Positions 2,078 through 58,912 of a stretch of DNA of 64,000 bases are shown piece by piece. Source of the stretch: Alphaproteobacteria bacterium. Lineage in GTDB: Bacteria > Pseudomonadota > Alphaproteobacteria > RF32 > CAG-239. The stretch covers positions 46,352-110,351 of the forward strand of contig JAZSBR010000010.1 in the NCBI GenBank assembly GCA_045602545.1, read 5' to 3'. Positions within the stretch are counted from its first letter, which is position 1, and each line of letters starts with the position of its first letter. The notes under the pieces are model-generated. The model saw nothing but the letters and a program-made list of their open reading frames with translations. It was not told where the DNA came from and made no database searches. The translations under genes were made by a program, and so were the position numbers.

Positions 2078-2109
2078 AAAAATAATCTTAAATTTAAAGA
2101 CAAATTCAC

Positions 2110-2138
2110 TTGAAATCTAAAAAGATTTAGGCTATATT
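2110..2138 (+). promoter_or_regulatory. Sigma-70-type promoter for ssrA
   Basis: TTGAAA (2110-2115), 17-nt spacer, TATATT (2133-2138). Confidence 0.5.
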
Positions 2139-2140
2139 GA

Positions 2141-2420
2141 GGGTGTCAGTTTTTGCTGACTGTGACACCAGAGGCCTTATGAAATAGGTGTGTCGGACCC
2201 GAGGGCAGTACTCGGCACCTCCACCATATATGGGGGTGAAACAGGTTTGACGGTGCTCAATAAAGATATGTGTTGTGTCCGGTGAGATACCACCGTTATC
2301 GGTTCAAAATAAATGAATGCAAATGACAATTTTGCACCTGTTGCTGTAGCTGCTTAATAAGGCAAAAGCAACAAAATCAAATTCTTTAAGCTATGGTTAG
2401 CATAAAGTGGGGGATGAGCC
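2141..2420 (+). ncRNA. ssrA: Circularly permuted (two-piece) tmRNA; the outer boundaries are approximate
   Basis: The acceptor piece ends ..CACCTCC-A-CCA at 2216-2226. The coding piece starts GGGGGTGAAACAGGTTTGACGG at 2232. GGGGGUG pairs with CACCUCC to give a G3:U70 pair. The tag reading frame gca aat gac aat ttt gca cct gtt gct gta gct gct taa taa (2319-2360) encodes ANDNFAPVAVAA. Confidence 0.85.
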
Positions 2421-2466
2421 ACCCAGCAACAGAACGGCTCTTAACTTTATCAATAAGGGAAGAAAA

Positions 2467-3166: not shown

Positions 3167-3485
3167 TTTACAATCACAAAATTTTTTGCTAGCATAAATG
3201 CAGAATGGTTTTTTACCATTTCAAGAACCTTCGGGTTCGGGGCTGTCGTAGGCTCTTTGTTCTGAGTGATACACTATAAATGGTATCACTTTGTGATGCT
3301 GTTTTTTTTGTATCAAAATCCCCGCATTGGTTGGGGAGATTATAGCGTATGTTCAGGCTTGTTTTTCAAGCTAAAGGCTATAATAGTCATTGCTCAGAAC
3401 ATGATTTACGAACTCCCCGCCCACTGATTGAAAAACAGAGGGCATTTAAATTTTAAAAACAACCTTTTTAATGGGAGATAATAAA
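3167..3485 (+). promoter_or_regulatory. Promoter plus long structured 5' leader of LRR paralog 1
   Basis: TTTACA (3167-3172), 17 nt, extended -10 TGCTAGCAT (3187-3195). The first hairpin AATGGT/ACCATT is shared with the leaders at 44450 and 10961(-). Several further hairpins follow over ~270 nt before the SD GGGAGA. Confidence 0.55.
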
Positions 3486-4703
3486 ATGATAAATTTGAAA
3501 AATAAATCCGCTGTCATCTTGAACCCCGAACGAAGTGAGTGGGTGTCAAGATCTCATGTTACAGGTGTAGAGATTGTTGTTAATGACGGAGTTAAAACGA
3601 AACGTTACTCTGCAAAAAGAGATCTTTACGCCCGCTCGCCTAACGGCTCGAGGCTCAAGATGACTGCTCCGGCGTCGTGCCGTAAGGCACATAAACGCCG
3701 CTTCATATTTAATCCATGGATTCTTCGTTTCGTTTGTACTCCACTCAGAATGACGATTCCGACCCTTGCCCTCACTTTCATCCTTATCGCCACCACCGAA
3801 TCGTATGCGGAAGTTGTTAAAACATGGTCTTGCGGTGCGGTTTGCACAGCAAGTTTGGATTCTGATGGACTATTAACAATTTCGGGAACTGGAGCAATGA
3901 ATAATTATAGTACCACATATACAGATAATACTCGAACAAATGCACCATGGGGTTCTGATGAATACAGACTAGCCATTAAATCAATTAAGATAGATGATGG
4001 TATAACTTCAATTGGACATAGCGCTTTTAAGGGATTAAAAGAAGTAAAAACAGCTCAAATTAGTGACACTGTTAAAAATATAGGAGCTTATTCTTTTGCT
4101 TATAGCGGTTTAAATTCAGTTAATGTTCCTGATTCTGTACAAAGTGTTGGTATTTCATCCTTCAGCAGTTTTACCCCAAGTTGGTCTTTGGCATTAAAAG
4201 AAATGGTGATACCTGATAGCATAACATCAGCGCAAGTTGATCAGATTTTTATAAATTCAAGAGAGGGTAATAATAGTAGCTTGCCAACCATACGCTGTTT
4301 AGGTGATAAAGAAAAATGTCAAAACGCTTTAAATAAATATTTACCAACATCTGTTGGAGGAAGTTGCTCATCAAAATGTTTAAGTGCAAAGGTTAATATT
4401 TTACCCGTTATAGATGAAAAGCAATGCTTAGGTAAATACATATGGAAAAATCAAACATGCACAGCTATGTCAGAAAAAGAATGCAATAATGTTTCAAAAT
4501 ATTATTATGATGGAAAGGAATGCAAGAACAGACCTTCAAACAATATAATAGAATGCAATTATGAATATAGCGGTTATATTAAAGTCGGCAATTATTGCGC
4601 TTCACCTGAAGAAACTTATGCTAAAAAGCATTACACCCCGGCGGAAGCGAACAAGTGGCTAAATGATGATGATAACTATGTTATTTTAACATTTAAAAAG
4701 TAA
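3486..4703 (+). CDS. Secreted BspA-type leucine-rich-repeat protein, paralog 1 of 4; the true N-terminus is uncertain
   Basis: LRR_5-like repeats (ITSIGHSAFKGLKEV.., VKNIGAYSFAYSGL.., VQSVGISSF). The C-terminal part is Cys-rich and the protein ends YTPAEANKWLNDDDNYVILTFKK. A signal-peptide-like MTIPTLALTFILIATTESYA starts only at 3750. Alternative starts are 3471 and 3750. Confidence 0.7.
   Translation: MINLKNKSAVILNPERSEWVSRSHVTGVEIVVNDGVKTKRYSAKRDLYARSPNGSRLKMTAPASCRKAHKRRFIFNPWILRFVCTPLRMTIPTLALTFILIATTESYAEVVKTWSCGAVCTASLDSDGLLTISGTGAMNNYSTTYTDNTRTNAPWGSDEYRLAIKSIKIDDGITSIGHSAFKGLKEVKTAQISDTVKNIGAYSFAYSGLNSVNVPDSVQSVGISSFSSFTPSWSLALKEMVIPDSITSAQVDQIFINSREGNNSSLPTIRCLGDKEKCQNALNKYLPTSVGGSCSSKCLSAKVNILPVIDEKQCLGKYIWKNQTCTAMSEKECNNVSKYYYDGKECKNRPSNNIIECNYEYSGYIKVGNYCASPEETYAKKHYTPAEANKWLNDDDNYVILTFKK
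3511..3760 (+). repeat. Block of GC-rich nested-palindrome repeat elements lying in frame inside the 5' end of the LRR paralog 1 ORF
   Basis: GTCATCTTGAACC..GGTGTCAAGATC, and CGGCGTCGTGCCGTAAGGCACATAAACGCCGCTTC (homologous to CGGCGCAGTGACGCAAGTCACATAACGCGCCGCTTC in the 19319 repeat). The block ends in GAATGACGATTCC. Confidence 0.65.
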
Positions 4704-9614: not shown

Positions 9615-10724
9615 TTATTTTTTAAAGGTTATCACAACTTCGTTTTTGTCGTCGTTACGCAAAACTTGAGCCGCCTCGGCAGGAGTATAGCGAATGCGGT
9701 TGCACCATCCGCCCATGTCTTTGCAAACATCGGCACAACATGTGCGCTTACTTAAATCCGGCTCACGAACGCATTTTGCTCCATCCCAGTAGTAATTTGT
9801 TGAAGCACAAGTTTTATAATCGGCATAAAACAATTGACCTGTTGCATCATATGTTTGTCCTTTTACAGCGGAATATTCAGTCAGTTTTTCGTAAATATTC
9901 GAACAAGATGCTTTATCTCCGCGACATATTATTTGTACATTATTTACTAGAATATAATCACCCAATGATTGATAAGCTATATCATTCAATGTGTCTGGTA
10001 TAATTACCTGTACAAGACTATTGGAATCTTGCAAAGCACATTCTCCAATGCTTGTTACCGCATCACCGAAATCAACATATCTTAATTTTTTTTCATTATC
10101 AAATGCTCCGGCTCCTACACGTTCAACCGAATCTCCGATGGTTATATTTGTGACTTTTTTCATATTTCTGAATGCCTGTGATCCGATATTTTCAACGCCG
10201 GAAACATAAATTGATGTGATGTCTGCCGGCCACTGAGTATTTTGTCCTGTCTTACCCCAAGCATAATCATCCATTGTACCGACTGTTCCATCCTCTCCGC
10301 CGGTTATAGTTAGCTTTTGATTTTCCACCGACCAGCAACAATTTGTTCCGCATGATTGTTGTCCGGTTTCGCAATTTATATCGTTTATATCTGCCCATAA
10401 TTCAGCGGTTGTGGCGAGGGTTAAAATAAGGGCAAAAATTAGTACTTTAGCGAAACCAAAACTAAAATGGTCATACTTGAGAATTGCGGAGCAATTAACC
10501 GAGTATCTCGGCTGATTCTTTTTTGATTCGGCTGAGATTATCGGTTCGCTTGACGCGCCCGATAATGACAATCTTTGTTTTTTGCTTTTGCCGCTCAAGG
10601 TCAGGAATGACAGCGCTTTGTTTGTCTCGGTGTTGAAGATTACCACGTTAGAGCCTACAGCTCTTCCTAGTAATGGCATCGCCTTATTTATTTTTTCACT
10701 CTTAATTTCAAACATTTTTAACAT
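9615..10724 (-). CDS. Secreted BspA-type leucine-rich-repeat protein, paralog 2 of 4, with a repeat-derived N-terminal extension
   Basis: LRR_5-like repeats (VENIGSQAFRNMKKV.., VERVGAGAFDNEKKL.., VTSIGECALQDSNSL..). The protein ends RYTPAEAAQVLRNDDKNEVVITFKK. The start context AAAGAAAGGATGTTAAAAATG is homologous to that of paralog 4. Confidence 0.7.
   Translation of the reverse strand: MLKMFEIKSEKINKAMPLLGRAVGSNVVIFNTETNKALSFLTLSGKSKKQRLSLSGASSEPIISAESKKNQPRYSVNCSAILKYDHFSFGFAKVLIFALILTLATTAELWADINDINCETGQQSCGTNCCWSVENQKLTITGGEDGTVGTMDDYAWGKTGQNTQWPADITSIYVSGVENIGSQAFRNMKKVTNITIGDSVERVGAGAFDNEKKLRYVDFGDAVTSIGECALQDSNSLVQVIIPDTLNDIAYQSLGDYILVNNVQIICRGDKASCSNIYEKLTEYSAVKGQTYDATGQLFYADYKTCASTNYYWDGAKCVREPDLSKRTCCADVCKDMGGWCNRIRYTPAEAAQVLRNDDKNEVVITFKK
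10499..10680 (-). repeat. GC-rich nested-palindrome elements lying in frame in the 5' end of the paralog 2 ORF
   Basis: The coding strand GCCATTACTAGGAAGAGCTGTAGGCTCTAACGTGGTAATCTTC matches the reverse complement of 20961-21003 (GTCATCACGAGGAAGAGCCGCAGGCTCTGACGTGGTGATCTCC) at 35 of 43 positions. Confidence 0.65.
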
Positions 10725-10994
10725 CCTTTCTTTTTATAAATTGAACCAAAAGAAAAACCCGCTACTTTCGTTAAAAAAAGCGGGCGGATGTTCACAAACC
10801 GTATCTCATCAAACGGCTCGGCGCTTTCGTGCTAAAGCCTTATTATGACACCGACATCCGCTCCCAAAAAACGAACGAAGTCGGTATACACCAACAAATC
10901 GCAATCGCGACCAATGAGATAAAGGGTTGTGACGCCCTAAAACGGCTATAAGCCATTCTGCTTTTACACTAGCAAAAAATTTTGTGTTTGTAAA
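10725..10994 (-). promoter_or_regulatory. Promoter plus conserved structured leader of LRR paralog 2 (homolog of 44417-44698)
   Basis: Read on the minus strand: TTTACA (10994-10989), 17 nt, TGCTAGTGT (-10 at 10971-10966). A ~240-nt leader can be aligned with the paralog 4 leader and shows compensatory changes. Confidence 0.65.
10753..10784 (-). terminator. Intrinsic terminator at the 3' end of the paralog 2 leader
   Basis: Minus strand: CCCGCTTTTTT taacg AAAGTAGCGGG followed by TTTTT, about 30 nt before the SD. Confidence 0.6.
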
Positions 10995-11052
10995 GAAAAA
11001 AGTTTCGACCGCAAAAAGAAAAGGCTCCGGAAAACATCCGAAGCCCTTTATC

Positions 11053-13200
11053 TTAAAACTGATCCAAAAATGAACGCAAGCGCTTTGAACGCGACGGATG
11101 CTTGAGCTTACGCAAAGCCTTGGCCTCAATCTGGCGAATACGTTCACGCGTAACATTAAATTGACGTCCCACTTCTTCCAAAGTGTGATCCGTGTTCATA
11201 CCGATACCGAAACGCATGCGAAGCACCCTCTCCTCACGCGGAGTTAGCGAAGACAAAATCTTGGTGCAGGTTTCCTTCAAATTGGTATGAATGGCCGCAT
11301 CAATCGGTTGCAAGGCGTTTTCATCGGCAATAAAATCACCCAGTGAGGAATCATCCTCATCTCCGACCGGCGACTCAAGGCTGACCGGTTCTTTGGCAAT
11401 TTTCATAACCTTTCTTATTTTTTCAATCGGCATTGACAAACGTTTTGCCAGTTCCTCAGGCACCGGCTCACGCCCCATCTCAGCCAACATCTGACGCGAA
11501 GTTCTGACCAGCTTATTGATGGTTTCAATCATATGAACCGGAATTCTGATTGTGCGCGCCTGATCGGCAATTGAACGGGTAATCGCCTGACGAATCCACC
11601 ATGTCGCATAAGTTGAAAACTTATATCCGCGGCGATATTCAAATTTATCAACCGCCTTCATCAAGCCGATATTACCTTCTTGAATCAAATCCAAAAATTG
11701 TAATCCGCGATTGGTATATTTTTTCGCAATTGAGATAACAAGGCGCAAATTTGCCTCAATCATCTCTTTTTTGGCTCTGTCTGCCTCACGCTCGCCTTTT
11801 TTGATTGTATCAACCATGCGGCGATATTCACTAATAGGCAAACCGCACTCTTGCGCCATTTGCGCAACATTCTGGCGGATTTCCACAATTTCATCTTTAT
11901 ACTTTTTAACAAAAGACGACCAATTTTTATCTTTTAACGTTGAAATCTTATTTATCCAATTCGGATCAAGCTCGGAATTTTGATAAACTTCCAAGAAATC
12001 TTCACGTTTGATTTTGCAAGCCAAAGCATCACGCAACAGCTTGCCCTCATAGCCCATAAGCCTTTTGTTTATTTCATTGAGCTGTTCAACCAGCTGTTCA
12101 ACCTTGTTATTGTTCAAATGGATTGAGTTTATGAGTTCAATCAATTCTTTTTTAAGTTTAAGGTATTTATTTTCCGTAACCATTGAAACTTTTCTGCCCG
12201 CCAACACGGCCGCCATACGTTGATTTTGGATTTTTTTCAAGTCATCATAATAGCTTGAAATTTTATCCAATGTTTCAACCACCTGCTCCATAAGCATATG
12301 TTCCATAGCAGAAATCGGGGTTGTTGACATACCGACAGCAGCATCAGAATCTTGCTCCATTGCGGAAGCGCCCAATTCATCACCGGCGCCTAATTCATCA
12401 CTGCCGTCCGAATCGAGATCATCATTGTCATCATCAACCATCTTGTCATCATCAAGATCATCCAGCTCGTCATCATTGCCATCAATATCCATTGAAGAAC
12501 CTAAGTCATCATTGATATCATCAATGTCTTCATCAATAACATCAAGATTTTCATCATTTAAGTCTTTGGTGACCTTATCCAAATCTTCAACGGCGGAATT
12601 ATCATCCGAATCGTCATACACAATGGCTTCGCTGTCATCACCGTAGACAACTTCCAAATCAATTATATCACGGAGCTGAATCGTGCCGGCAAGAAGTTCA
12701 TCACGCCAGTTTGCAATGGCCTTCAAGGTGAGCGGGCTTTCGCACAAACCGCCTATCATAACGTTTTTACCGGCCTCAATGCGCTTAGAAATTGCTATTT
12801 CTCCTTCACGAGAAAGCAATTCAACCAAGCCCATTTCTTTTAAATACATACGAACCGGATCATCCGAACGGCTTAAATCCTTGGCGTCAAGATTACTTGA
12901 TTCTTCATATTCTTCATCATCAACCGATTCTTCATCATCGTCAACGGCATCATCTGCACCGATATCTTCTTCATCGGAAACAATGTTGATGCCCATTTCC
13001 GATATGGCCGACATAATATCCTCAATCTTATCGGAAGACAACTTACCCTCAGGAAGTGCCTTATTCAATTCTTCCATTGAAATATATCCGACAGCTTTGC
13101 CTTTTGCGATAAGGCGTTTGATTGCCGCACCCATAACATCACCGCTTGTATATTCCATACCATCGGTGCTATACATATCTTGATTATCTTTATCAGACAT
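11053..13200 (-). CDS. rpoD: Primary sigma factor RpoD with a long hyper-acidic insert
   Basis: Regions 1.2-4.2 are recognisable ([57 protein letters not shown], and [27 protein letters not shown]). Confidence 0.95.
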
Positions 13201-44416: not shown

Positions 44417-44698
44417 TTGACATTAGAGGTTTTTTATGATAGCCTTAATTCAGAATGGTGAGTTACCATTTTAGGGCGTGAGAACCCTTTATTCCACTAG
44501 TCGCAAAAGCATAGCGACTTAAAAGTTGTATGCCGATAGTTCGTTCATCTAATGGAGCGGATGTCGGTGCAATAAGGCTCCTTAAAAAGCGCGAAAACGC
44601 CGAGCCGATCAGTGGAATACGGTTTCTCAACATCCGCCCGCCTTTTCTTAGGATAAGAATGACGGGTTTTTCTTTAGCTTAATTTAATAAAAGAAAGG
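44417..44698 (+). promoter_or_regulatory. Promoter plus conserved structured leader of LRR paralog 4 (homolog of 10725-10994 on the minus strand)
   Basis: TTGACA (44417-44422), 17 nt, TGATAGCCT (-10 at 44440-44445). The leader starts near CAGAATGG (44451) and has about six helices that are conserved, with compensatory changes, relative to the paralog 2 leader. Confidence 0.65.
44637..44671 (+). terminator. Intrinsic terminator at the 3' end of the paralog 4 leader
   Basis: CCCGCCTTTTCTT aggat AAGAATGACGGG (imperfect stem) followed by TTTTT, ~28 nt before ATG 44699. Confidence 0.55.
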
Positions 44699-45625
44699 AT
44701 GTATAAAATGAGTGCATATTTTAGTAAAAATTTGATTTTAAGTTTAGGTGTGGCAACGATGTTATCATTAGCAATAGGCGAATCGCGGGCGGAAACAACC
44801 TGCACTTGGGAAGGAACAAAGCTGATTATCGGTGGAAGTGGTGAGTTTTCCGGCTGCGATTCGGTATACGATGATGACGATAATGAAATTGATTGGGGCG
44901 AACAGCAGGTAAAAATAACCGAAATTGAGTTTGGAGATGGTATTACGGCTCTAGGAAATTATGTTTTTGATAATGTCCCTAATTTAACAACACTAAACAC
45001 CAATAATATAACTACAATAGGAGAGGAATGTTTTGATAATTTGCAAAGCCTCTTGAAAGTTACTATGCCTAAAGTTGAGCGTATAGAAAATTGGGCTTTT
45101 GAAAATTCTAATAACCTTATAAGTATAGAACTTCCATCTTCACTTGTTTATGTTGATTCTGATGCTTTCAGAACATATAATGACATAGAATTTATTATTC
45201 CTGATAATCTAAAATTTGTCTCTGATGAATACGAGTGGTTATGGAATACGGATGCCTTAAATGATACAGATGAAGGATTAGTGATATTTAAATGTAAAGG
45301 CAACAGCGAAAAATGCAAAGAAAACATACAAAAATATATGGTTGATGCATCTAACGTTAGCAGTAAACAGGTTATTTTTGATGCCGGAGATCATAAAGAA
45401 TGTCTTAAATCTGCAGATGATGATTTAGAATATTATCATACTGGAACAGAATGTGCCGAGTTGCCAGAAAGCGGAAATATAACTTGTGACAGCGGTTATG
45501 CCGATTATAACGGAAATTGTTATGCTCAATTACCTTTTTCAAAAAAGCGTTGGACGCCGGCAGAGGCAAATGAGTGGCTTCATGACGGAAATGATAACTT
45601 TGTGGTGATTACGTTTAAGAAGTGA
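44699..45625 (+). CDS. Secreted BspA-type leucine-rich-repeat protein, paralog 4 of 4
   Basis: Signal peptide ..LILSLGVATMLSLAIGESRA. LRR_5-like repeats (ITALGNYVFDNVPNL.., ITTIGEECFDNLQSL.., VERIENWAFENSNNL..). The protein ends KKRWTPAEANEWLHDGNDNFVVITFKK. Confidence 0.8.
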   Translation: MYKMSAYFSKNLILSLGVATMLSLAIGESRAETTCTWEGTKLIIGGSGEFSGCDSVYDDDDNEIDWGEQQVKITEIEFGDGITALGNYVFDNVPNLTTLNTNNITTIGEECFDNLQSLLKVTMPKVERIENWAFENSNNLISIELPSSLVYVDSDAFRTYNDIEFIIPDNLKFVSDEYEWLWNTDALNDTDEGLVIFKCKGNSEKCKENIQKYMVDASNVSSKQVIFDAGDHKECLKSADDDLEYYHTGTECAELPESGNITCDSGYADYNGNCYAQLPFSKKRWTPAEANEWLHDGNDNFVVITFKK

Positions 45626-58149: not shown

Positions 58150-58384
58150 ATTTTATGCTCTAAATTTATCTTTTCAGCCGTCCAAAAGGCAAAAAAAATC
58201 GCTTATAAAACAAAAGGTTATAAAAATAATGCACAGATATTAACATTATTGCTATTTTTTTTAAAAATCTTATTGAAAAATTTACAATTCTTGCTTAATT
58301 TAGTGAATGTATTAATTGTAATGCAATTAAAGTAACTTTCGTAGCAATACGAAAAATTGTATAAAACCATATGGAGAAAATAAA

Positions 58385-58849
58385 ATGAAAAAACTTTTAA
58401 GTTTATTCTGCGCAATTGTTTGCTTGTCAGGTTGTTCTATGTTTGGTGCTGATGGCGGTTTGTTCAGCGGCGCTGACTGCGAATCAAGATTGGCTCGTGA
58501 CTTTGCCGAAAACTCTACTGATACTGTATTCTTCGCATTTGACAGCTCTGCACTTTCTGCTGAAGCTCAAGCTGCTTTAGATACTCAAGCTGCTTGGCTC
58601 AAAAAGCATGACAGTGTGAACGCAATCGTTCAAGGCTACTGCGATGAAAGAGGTACTCGTGAATACAACTTGGCTTTGGGTGAACGCCGTGCCAACGCTG
58701 TAAAACAATACTTGGTATCTCAAGGTATTGATGAAAGCAGAATTTCTACCATTTCTTATGGTAAAGAAAGACCTGCTGTTCTCGGCAGCAACGAAGCCGC
58801 TTGGGCTCAAAACCGTCGCGCTGTTACGGTTATCAGCTCTGCAGAATAA
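58385..58849 (+). CDS. pal: Peptidoglycan-associated lipoprotein (OmpA-like domain)
   Basis: Lipobox CLSGCS, then FAFDSSALS..GYCDERGTREYNLALGERRANAV..SYGKERP. Confidence 0.9.
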   Translation: MKKLLSLFCAIVCLSGCSMFGADGGLFSGADCESRLARDFAENSTDTVFFAFDSSALSAEAQAALDTQAAWLKKHDSVNAIVQGYCDERGTREYNLALGERRANAVKQYLVSQGIDESRISTISYGKERPAVLGSNEAAWAQNRRAVTVISSAE

Positions 58850-58912
58850 TTCACTTATCTGAATTAATAGAAAAGACGCTCTTGATTTAGAGCGCCTTTT
58901 TTATTTTCTGCC

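Follow-up and report, generated by a model that had tools for sequence, protein, structure and literature searches.

What kind of RNA is made between the promoter and the start codon of a surface-protein gene in an uncultured gut bacterium, and does it decide whether that gene is expressed? The question is raised by a stretch of 64,000 nucleotides (nt) from an Alphaproteobacteria bacterium (GTDB lineage RF32; CAG-239; assembly GCA_045602545.1, contig JAZSBR010000010.1, positions 46,352 to 110,351), hereafter the window, with a G+C content of 40%. On its minus strand a first-pass annotation, made from the letters alone, had recognized a structured leader, copy B, ahead of a gene for a leucine-rich repeat protein (LRR_5 by its Pfam match), and had proposed that it formed, with a relative elsewhere in the window, an unassigned motif laid out as a riboswitch or an attenuator. 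We find that the leader is real and represents a structured RNA family that is new to the catalogues, though of a known kind, and that covariation supports two mutually exclusive folds: State A, in which the long-range helices P1 and P2 close a junction with P2a, P3 and P4, and State B, in which helices Y, Z and X organize its 3′ half. The reading that we prefer, with a probability of about one half, is that of a cis-acting transcription-attenuation switch of some 220 nt, which an effector would drive from one fold to the other and which would govern a regulon of surface proteins.

The leaders of the window and their family

Read along the minus strand from 10994 to 10740, copy B starts with a promoter (TTTACA-N17-TAGTGT) and a 5′ hairpin; next come a core of some 160 nt and a G+C-rich hairpin with its U-tract, and then the ribosome-binding site (RBS) and ATG of the LRR_5 gene. 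The same layout is found at 44417-44710 on the plus strand, before a paralogous LRR_5 gene, and in each case the hairpin and U-tract lie 45 to 60 nt upstream of the gene. That the two leaders (10740-10965, minus strand, and 44448-44680, plus strand) are homologous along their length, as had been claimed, is borne out: blastn against the window aligns 10700-11010(-) with 44432-44710(+) over 284 nt, of which 72.5% are identical (E 1.5e-34), and gives no other full-length match to copy B there. Both adopt a common multi-branch fold, and against dinucleotide shuffles they reach z-scores of -5.5 and -4.1. The window holds more than these two: a third, diverged leader precedes another LRR_5 gene.

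Homologues were collected with two pattern scans. The first, which used the two blocks GAGCGGATGTCGG...ACATCCGC on species-representative genomes, returned at least 52 true copies, all in about 11 uncultured alphaproteobacterial metagenome-assembled genomes (MAGs) from human gut, rumen and reticulum, at least 19 of them in the single MAG RGIG4812; a further 60 matches of high G+C content, in Actinomycetota and other phyla, were discarded as chance or coding matches (dnaA, ftsA-like and others). The second, built on other anchor blocks, with the P3/Y block and the last part of the 3′ block unconstrained, found in human-gut and rumen metagenomes at least 124 copies, of which 78 are unique. Altogether the scans of gut and rumen Alphaproteobacteria MAGs and metagenomes added some 170 copies, a lower bound, with 10 to 20 or more per genome. 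Both used exact patterns, which overstates invariance and makes the taxonomic range a minimum. A search of 50 loci with R1, the covariance model of the family, yielded only one new copy, besides antisense self-matches of 18-31 bits. In what follows, the alignment fold was computed with RNAalifold on 52 cores and pairs were counted on 120 unique full-length leaders; because many metagenome copies are strain variants, the counts of paired cells are not independent events, and the controls in which partners were slid are not probabilities. The energies given are predicted by nearest-neighbour rules, which take no account of tertiary contacts, of ligands or of the kinetics of co-transcriptional folding. 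About ten of the copies (in L001, L011, L026, L036, L043, L051, L081, L096 and L105) come from a bin titled 'uncultured Eubacteriales bacterium' (assembly CAVGVF01). One of these loci, L043, is 85% nucleotide-identical to positions 58219-58850 of the window, and as this identity is shared outside the leader the label is doubtful, the bin being probably a mislabelled alphaproteobacterium.

The promoter travels with the leader. The one proposed for copy B goes undetected in a generic sigma-70 scan; a -35/-10 pair of the form TTTACA-N17-TAnnnT nevertheless lies upstream of 78 of the 133 unique copies, in most cases with 27-30 nt between its end and GGGCGT, which upholds the proposal. The search pattern was degenerate (T[TC][TG][AG]C[ATC]-N16-18-TAnnnT), and among the promoter-bearing copies TTTACA itself occurs in 48 and a spacing of N17 in 71.

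Two mutually exclusive folds

State A is paired in 95.9% of the cells across the 120 leaders, against 28-52% when partners are slid by one to three columns. In P2, 98 distinct 5′ strands occur among the 120 sequences, and the duplex that a strand forms with its own partner has a mean of -11.75 kcal/mol, compared with -3.56 for the partners of other copies. In P1, the outer part GGGCG:CGCCC is invariant, so that covariation says nothing about it; the inner part consists of a U-A pair, three variable pairs, then AA(A):UU(U) and CC:GG, and each of the three variable pairs takes four pair types, with 37, 53 and 69 double-sided changes. The P2a hairpin also covaries, by mutual information (G-C 117, A-U 12). 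The hairpin P3, with the family form GCCGAU-UUCGC / GCGGA-U-GUCGGC, has A-U for G-C at its base in 10 sequences; its pair 136-185 is G-C in 76, G-U in 33 and A-U in 10, its pair 151-174 C-G in 41, U-G in 29 and U-A in 18, and both arms change jointly where UUCGC/GCGGA gives way to UCUGUC/GGACGGA. In P4 the changes are one-sided only, with 97.5% of cells paired. Ahead of all these, P0, at the 5′ end of the transcript, differs in sequence in every copy and yet folds with a mean of -8.05 kcal/mol, against -2.77 for shuffles. The three covarying helices initially drawn from the two window copies alone, namely P2 (ATCTCAT/ATGAGAT), the basal portion of P3 (ACCGAC/GTCGGT) and P0 (AATGGCT/AGCCGTT), are thus real and hold in the whole set.

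The 3′ arm of P3 doubles as the 5′ arms of two other helices, Y and Z. With them, and with X, the 3′ half of the leader alone forms a three-way junction, State B, in which 96.6% of the cells are paired. Helix Y, of the family form GRRCGGAUG:CAUCCGCCC, is paired in 99.9% of its cells, and in two loci (L220 and L231) GGAUGU becomes GGGUGU together with the change of ACAUCC to ACACUCC. Helix Z (UCGGNN:N'N'CCGA) encloses an inner hairpin, H, with AAUAA on either side, and H undergoes compensatory changes such as GGC/GCC to GAC/GUC. In helix X, the pair 232-273 is G-C in 111 leaders and A-U in the other 9, single-sided changes being absent. Helix X and State A cannot coexist, since X uses nucleotides of inner P1 and of P4 and encloses the 3′ strand of P2 in its loop. 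When the 3′ domain is folded in isolation, its predicted minimum free energy (MFE) structure contains the Y core in 103 of 120 cases and X in 89. We considered, and rejected, Y as a tertiary contact within State A, in which the internal loop of P3 would dock on the bulge of P1: the helices would not fit in length, and covariation extends to X, which is incompatible with P2. The invariant blocks that had been described as single-stranded are all present, and they are mostly base-paired in one or both of these conformations.

The third leader of the window, which we call type 2, belongs to a sister family. Its R1 score of 27.5 bits is not convincing alone and rests on context, because the antisense strands of true copies score similarly. 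The leader has a promoter and P0 (3160-3211) that are 88% identical to those of copy B over 52 nt (blastn), and the same architecture as in the main family, with a z-score of -6.8. Five homologues of type 2 were found (L088:3799-4054, L165:5601-5800(-), L178:6524-6753, L156:11891-12052 and L106:7374-7592), and this sister family has conserved blocks of its own (GGAGCUGUCGUAAGCUC, UCGGGGAGC, GCGUAUGUUCA and AUGAUUUACGAACUCUCCGG); the type 2 leader has no match in Rfam, RF02221 included. P1, P3, Y and X are all kept there through compensatory changes. The inner part of P1, GU-NNN-AA / UU-N'N'N'-AAC in the main family, reads GUCGUAA/UUACGAAC in the sister family and varies to UUAGCAG/UUGCUAAC and others; P3 passes from UUCGC/GCGGA to UCCCCGA/UCGGGGA and X from GCCGU/ACGGU to GUCAU/AUGAU; Y passes from GCGGAUG/CAUCCGC to GGUCGGGGAG/CUCUCCGGCC, with up to 10 base pairs (bp) and -16 to -19 kcal/mol. 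At its full length the Y of the sister family takes in four nucleotides that also belong to the terminator 5′ arm, and for three of the six 3′ domains folded in isolation the predicted structure displaces the terminator. This covariation across families is the strongest evidence for a function of the Y pairing that had been proposed.

A terminator with a contested 5′ arm

The leader ends in an intrinsic terminator, as had been proposed. The G+C-rich hairpin and U-tract are accompanied by compensatory changes in the stem (G-C in 58, A-U in 35 and G-U in 22 at one pair), and the hairpin averages -11.2 kcal/mol over the family, against -5.5 for shuffles; a generic terminator scan missed that of copy B because its loop exceeds 8 nt. 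The 5′ arm, (G)CCCGC, starts inside the invariant block CAUCCGCCC, which is therefore contested by three partners: the 5′ GGGCG of outer P1, the arm GRRCGGAUG of P3 in forming Y, and the 3′ arm of the terminator. The layout of a riboswitch or attenuator attributed to the leader thus stands as regards a structured, covarying leader with a terminator and a contested 3′ block; the long-range P1, with GGGCG as a second competitor, had been missed.

The predicted energies of the 120 leaders place State A with the terminator (mean -78.5 kcal/mol) close to the unconstrained minimum (mean -79.3). In this combination P1 slips to GGG:UCC and GU:AC. State A with GGGCG:CGCCC and the terminator excluded averages -76.1, which is 2.45 above State A with the terminator, and in the nascent transcript that still lacks the 3′ arm of the terminator the 5-bp GGGCG:CGCCC belongs to the MFE fold in 114 of 120 cases.

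Genes downstream of the leaders

In 160 of 173 copies an ATG-initiated open reading frame (ORF) of at least 50 amino acids (aa) starts 20-62 nt after the 3′ block (median 46), in the same orientation. This spacing leaves no room for another promoter, so that the downstream genes depend on read-through. Their products are autotransporters (PF03797) in 46 cases and prepilin-like proteins (GRSMIEMLGVLA) in 38, the others being lipoproteins, some with a PEGA domain, LRR_5 proteins and, occasionally, an EcoRI-like methylase or a Stealth/GT8 enzyme. The methylase, an orphan adenine methyltransferase (PF13651), follows the leaders L119, L125 and L165, and the capsule-type Stealth/GT8 enzyme follows L113. 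Genes of these classes (adhesins, pilins, autotransporters, lipoproteins, methylases, capsule) are often phase-variable in other bacteria. All proteins downstream of the window-type and RGIG4812-type leaders (L004, L010, L014, L017, L027 and others) share a conserved motif of about 25 aa at their C-terminus. Its form is R(Y/W)TPAEA..L..D..N.VVITFKK for the window (9615-9700, minus, and 45540-45625, plus) and RYTLPEADxxTSNDNENMIEWIFE for RGIG4812; it has no Pfam match in the proteins scanned and looks like a shared sorting or secretion signal. Two loci, L114:475-967 (-) and L194:3140-3600 (+), each carry two complete leaders in tandem at a distance of about 270 nt; the interval contains no ORF, and a PEGA lipoprotein gene comes after the second leader. 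Such pairs may work as tandem switches, or they may point to free-standing RNAs.

We looked for a leader peptide and found no short ORF conserved in position across the 120 leaders: ATG ORFs of at least 15 codons exist in 95 of them, with starts scattered from 0 to 180 nt, and the sole recurrent AUG, within UAUGCCGAU, is missing from copy B. An attenuator relying on a leader peptide was rejected on these grounds. Also rejected was an anti-Shine-Dalgarno role of ACAUCC, which would pair with GGAUGU in the RBS of window-type and RGIG-type copies, as by inspection the GGAG-type sites of the other subfamily do not pair with it.

Around copy B itself, the rpoD gene (11053-13200) ends in a strong intrinsic terminator with a 13-bp stem (11019-11049, minus strand) just upstream of the promoter, which makes copy B an independent transcription unit. 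Two ORFs on the mechanical list, of 88 aa (10582-10848, plus) and 115 aa (10809-11156, minus), overlap the leader and are probably not genes, because conservation is at the RNA level. An exact-protein look-up of both LRR proteins, with either start codon, gave no match. Elsewhere the window holds a permuted, two-piece transfer-messenger RNA (tmRNA) of the alpha type at 2106-2446 (+), scoring 217 bits to RF01849; this and the G+C content of 40% assign the window to an alphaproteobacterial lineage of low G+C. Table 1 collects the features.

Table 1. Elements of the leaders in the window, with the evidence on which each was placed (copy B unless otherwise stated)
Feature	Position	Strand	Sequence or pairing	Basis
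-35 hexamer	10989-10994	-	TTTACA	Read from sequence; family pattern
-10 hexamer, weak	10966-10971	-	TAGTGT; family form TAnnnT	Sequence; family pattern
P0, hairpin at transcript 5′ end	10939-10959	-	AGAAUGGCU/AGCCGUUUU	MFE fold
Conserved core	10780-10940	-		R1, 129.3 bits, E 4e-28 (training member, score by construction)
P1 5′ strand	10924-10937	-	GGGCGU-CAC-AACCC, with 10782-10802	
P2 5′ strand	10913-10920	-	AUCUCAUU, with 10803-10810	
P2a hairpin	10898-10911	-	GUCGC-GAUU-GCGAU	MFE fold
P3 hairpin	10848-10887	-	AUACCGAC-UUCGUUC ... GAGCGGA-U-GUCGGUGU	Pair counts
Helix Y 5′ arm	10855-10863	-	GAGCGGAUG, with CAUCCGCCC at 10782-10790	Sub-threshold sRNA-Xcc1 alignment
P4 with inner hairpin (State A)	10815-10839	-	GGCU ... 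AGCC	Fold, pair counts
Helix X 5′ arm	10813-10817	-	GCCGU, with ACGGU at 10798-10802	
P2 3′ strand	10803-10810	-	GAUGAGAU	MFE fold, duplex energies
P1 3′ strand and invariant 3′ block	10782-10802	-	ACGGUUU-GUG-AACAUCCGCCC	Alignment fold, pair counts, energies
Intrinsic terminator	10753-10785	-	GCCCGCU ... AGCGGGU; U-tract 10747-10757	Predicted fold
LRR_5 (BspA-type) gene	9615-10715	-	RBS AAAGGA 10724-10729; ATG 10713-10715	Pfam PF13306, E 2.9e-14
Second copy, promoter	44417-44445	+	TTGACA-N17-TAGCCT	Read from sequence
Second copy, conserved core	44471-44641	+		R1, 140.7 bits (training member); predicted fold
Second copy, terminator hairpin and U-tract	44636-44676	+		Sequence, predicted fold
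Second copy, LRR_5 gene	44708-45625	+		Pfam
Type 2 leader (third, diverged)	3237-3424	+	Upstream of LRR_5 gene 3471-4703	R1, 27.5 bits, E 1e-4 (whole window)

Comparison with known regulatory RNAs

At Rfam gathering thresholds the whole window contains only the tmRNA and four tRNAs, none at the leader sites, in agreement with the earlier view that the motif matches no known family. None of the riboswitch families of Rfam 15 matches the leader at E up to 10, and in the literature we found no paper describing the motif, queries with its invariant strings or for links between Xcc1 and riboswitches giving nothing relevant. The only match that recurs under permissive conditions (E up to 10) is that to sRNA-Xcc1 (RF02221), at 26.2 and 23.4 bits in the window copies for a threshold of 53. 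Across homologues, the 3′ half is matched over the full length of that model in 16 of 18 loci, with 28.7-40.2 bits and a best E of 7.7e-4, again below threshold.

The resemblance deserves attention, for the 3′ half of the leader, from GRRCGGAUG to CAUCCGCCC, aligns to the whole 87-position model. Both have a closing helix around two hairpins, the first with an A-rich internal loop (AAUA / AAUAA), both have GCCGU...ACGGUUUU.GA.C and a U-rich tail, and both are multi-copy and placed upstream of a gene in the same orientation. sRNA-Xcc1 is a free RNA of Xanthomonas, verified as an 88-nt species by Northern blotting (PMC2996969), found upstream of symE in integron cassettes of Xanthomonas (10.1101/2025.06.18.660453) and present in seven copies in Xylella (PMC12189769). 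In contrast, the leader falls short of the gathering score, is about 220 nt long and not a free RNA of about 88 nt, has a 5′ domain that refolds the 3′ half via P1 and P2, ends in a separate terminator hairpin, belongs to gut Alphaproteobacteria and precedes surface-protein genes, not symE.

As a conserved, structured domain of a 5′ untranslated region (UTR), with covariation, the leader has what is expected of a riboswitch, and its CGCCC overlaps the 5′ arm of the terminator while having two competing partners; yet the predicted folds keep the terminator in most states. It shares a structured, covarying leader and competition with a terminator with the c-di-GMP-I/II riboswitches, which likewise exist in many copies per genome before adhesin and pilin genes (PMC7423583). 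It differs from them in that its alternative fold takes in almost the whole RNA, beyond an expression platform, and in that no ligand is assigned to it. With the four-segment attenuators of the trp type it has in common the 1:2, 2:3 and 3:4 complementarities, kept in two diverged families, if we number as segments the 5′ arm of P3 (1), its 3′ arm (2), the 3′ block (3) and the 3′ arm of the terminator (4); unlike them, it has no positionally conserved leader peptide, and the long-range P1/P2 is a fourth competitor for segment 3. Compared with protein-dependent antiterminators, no binding protein has been identified for the leader. The Brt RNAs of Bartonella are also alphaproteobacterial, multi-copy, structured RNAs of about 200 nt with a terminator right upstream of a gene. 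Those genes encode trp regulators/DNA-binding proteins, whereas the leader precedes surface-protein genes.

How the switch would work, and what weighs against it

Transcription would begin at the sigma-70-type promoter of the leader itself. In State A, the predicted ground state, GGGCGU-NNN-AACCC and the variable strand that follows would pair with the 3′ strand to make P1 and P2, closing a junction that holds P2a, P3 and P4, with GRRCGGAUGUCGG sequestered in P3. In State B, Y (GRRCGGAUG:CAUCCGCCC), Z (UCGG:CCGA) and X (GCCGU:ACGGU) would assemble into the Xcc1-like junction. The partner taken by the last CCC of CAUCCGCCC, either GGGCG of outer P1 or GRR of Y, would decide whether the terminator forms. 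State A with the terminator would be the default, off; read-through would follow if outer P1 stays in register with CGCCC, or if the three-way junction forms and Y takes the CCC. An effector, be it a small molecule or an RNA-binding protein, would shift this balance and hence coordinate many genes for adhesins, pilins, autotransporters and lipoproteins.

Several points weigh against this picture, which we hold at even odds. The two search patterns fixed different blocks, to which part of the apparent invariance is owed, and outer P1 and the Y core show almost no variation in their pairs within the family, which puts them beyond the reach of covariation there. State B with the terminator averages -59.9 kcal/mol, that is 18.6 above State A with the terminator, and would consequently need a factor or kinetic trapping. 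The proposal that GAGCGGAUG:CAUCCGCCC acts as an antiterminator survives in part: the pairing potential is real and kept in the sister family as GGUCGGGGAG:CUCUCCGGCC, but in the main family 85 of the 120 structures predicted for the isolated 3′ domain contain both Y and the terminator, so that Y would be a weak antiterminator by this modelling. The terminator is in the predicted MFE fold of 97 to 110 of the 120 leaders whichever 5′ start is used, and termination might, on these predictions, be constitutive. Since the energies by themselves favour termination in almost every state, kinetics or a factor must account for read-through; there is no known effector, and the regulon, which is no metabolic pathway, does not hint at a ligand.

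Alternative explanations

It could be that we are dealing mainly with a small RNA (sRNA) gene, whose product, either the RNA of about 220 nt that ends at the terminator or an Xcc1-like 3′ fragment processed from it, acts in trans (for example with Hfq), the gene downstream being expressed by leaky read-through. The full-model match to sRNA-Xcc1, itself free and multi-copy, speaks for it, as do a terminator predicted in nearly all states and the ORF-free tandem copies of L114 and L194. The A-rich AAUAAG repeats and the U-rich tail may be added, as we take them to resemble Hfq-binding features. Against it stand the constant short distance to a start codon in the same orientation, which has no room for a separate promoter, and covariation that keeps the P1/P2 fold, needless for a free Xcc1-like RNA. 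Twenty near-identical trans-acting RNAs per genome would also be unusual, and we hold this explanation unlikely.

Quite unlikely in our opinion is a constitutive 5′ UTR module devoid of switching, where a strong promoter and a nuclease-resistant leader would set the expression or the mRNA stability of envelope genes, or offer a shared target to a repressor. It would fit the joint conservation of promoter, P0 and leader, the dominance of State A as by far the most stable fold, and the fact that all the genes encode exported proteins. A strong internal terminator would however be counter-productive, and the covariation of X and H, together with Y across families, shows selection for a fold that is incompatible with State A.

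A DNA-level repeat, such as a promoter cassette kept by gene conversion or used in recombinational (phase or antigenic) variation, is very improbable despite the many copies per genome and the typically phase-variable classes of gene downstream, since copies within a genome differ by compensatory helix changes and keep strand-specific G-U pairs, which places selection on RNA and not on DNA, since their orientation towards the gene is constant, and since flanking inverted repeats were not noticed, no systematic search for them having been made.

What the leader may mean for its hosts

We return to the attenuation switch. If the leader is one, a single RNA coordinates most of the surface proteome of widespread uncultured bacteria of the human gut and rumen, and provides a direct handle on how they sense and attach to their host. 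One may go further and see here a new riboswitch class, whose aptamer would be either the four-way junction of State A or the three-way junction resembling Xcc1, and which would sense a global signal, for example a nucleotide second messenger, and switch on 10 to 20 or more surface genes; sRNA-Xcc1 would then likewise be a cis-regulatory sensor and not a trans-acting sRNA. This is a speculation that we would not expect to prove right. The leader is in addition one of the rare cases where covariation backs two complete and exclusive folds of one RNA, which makes it a good model for RNA bistability, and it suggests where to look for the function of sRNA-Xcc1, an orphan family of plant pathogens.

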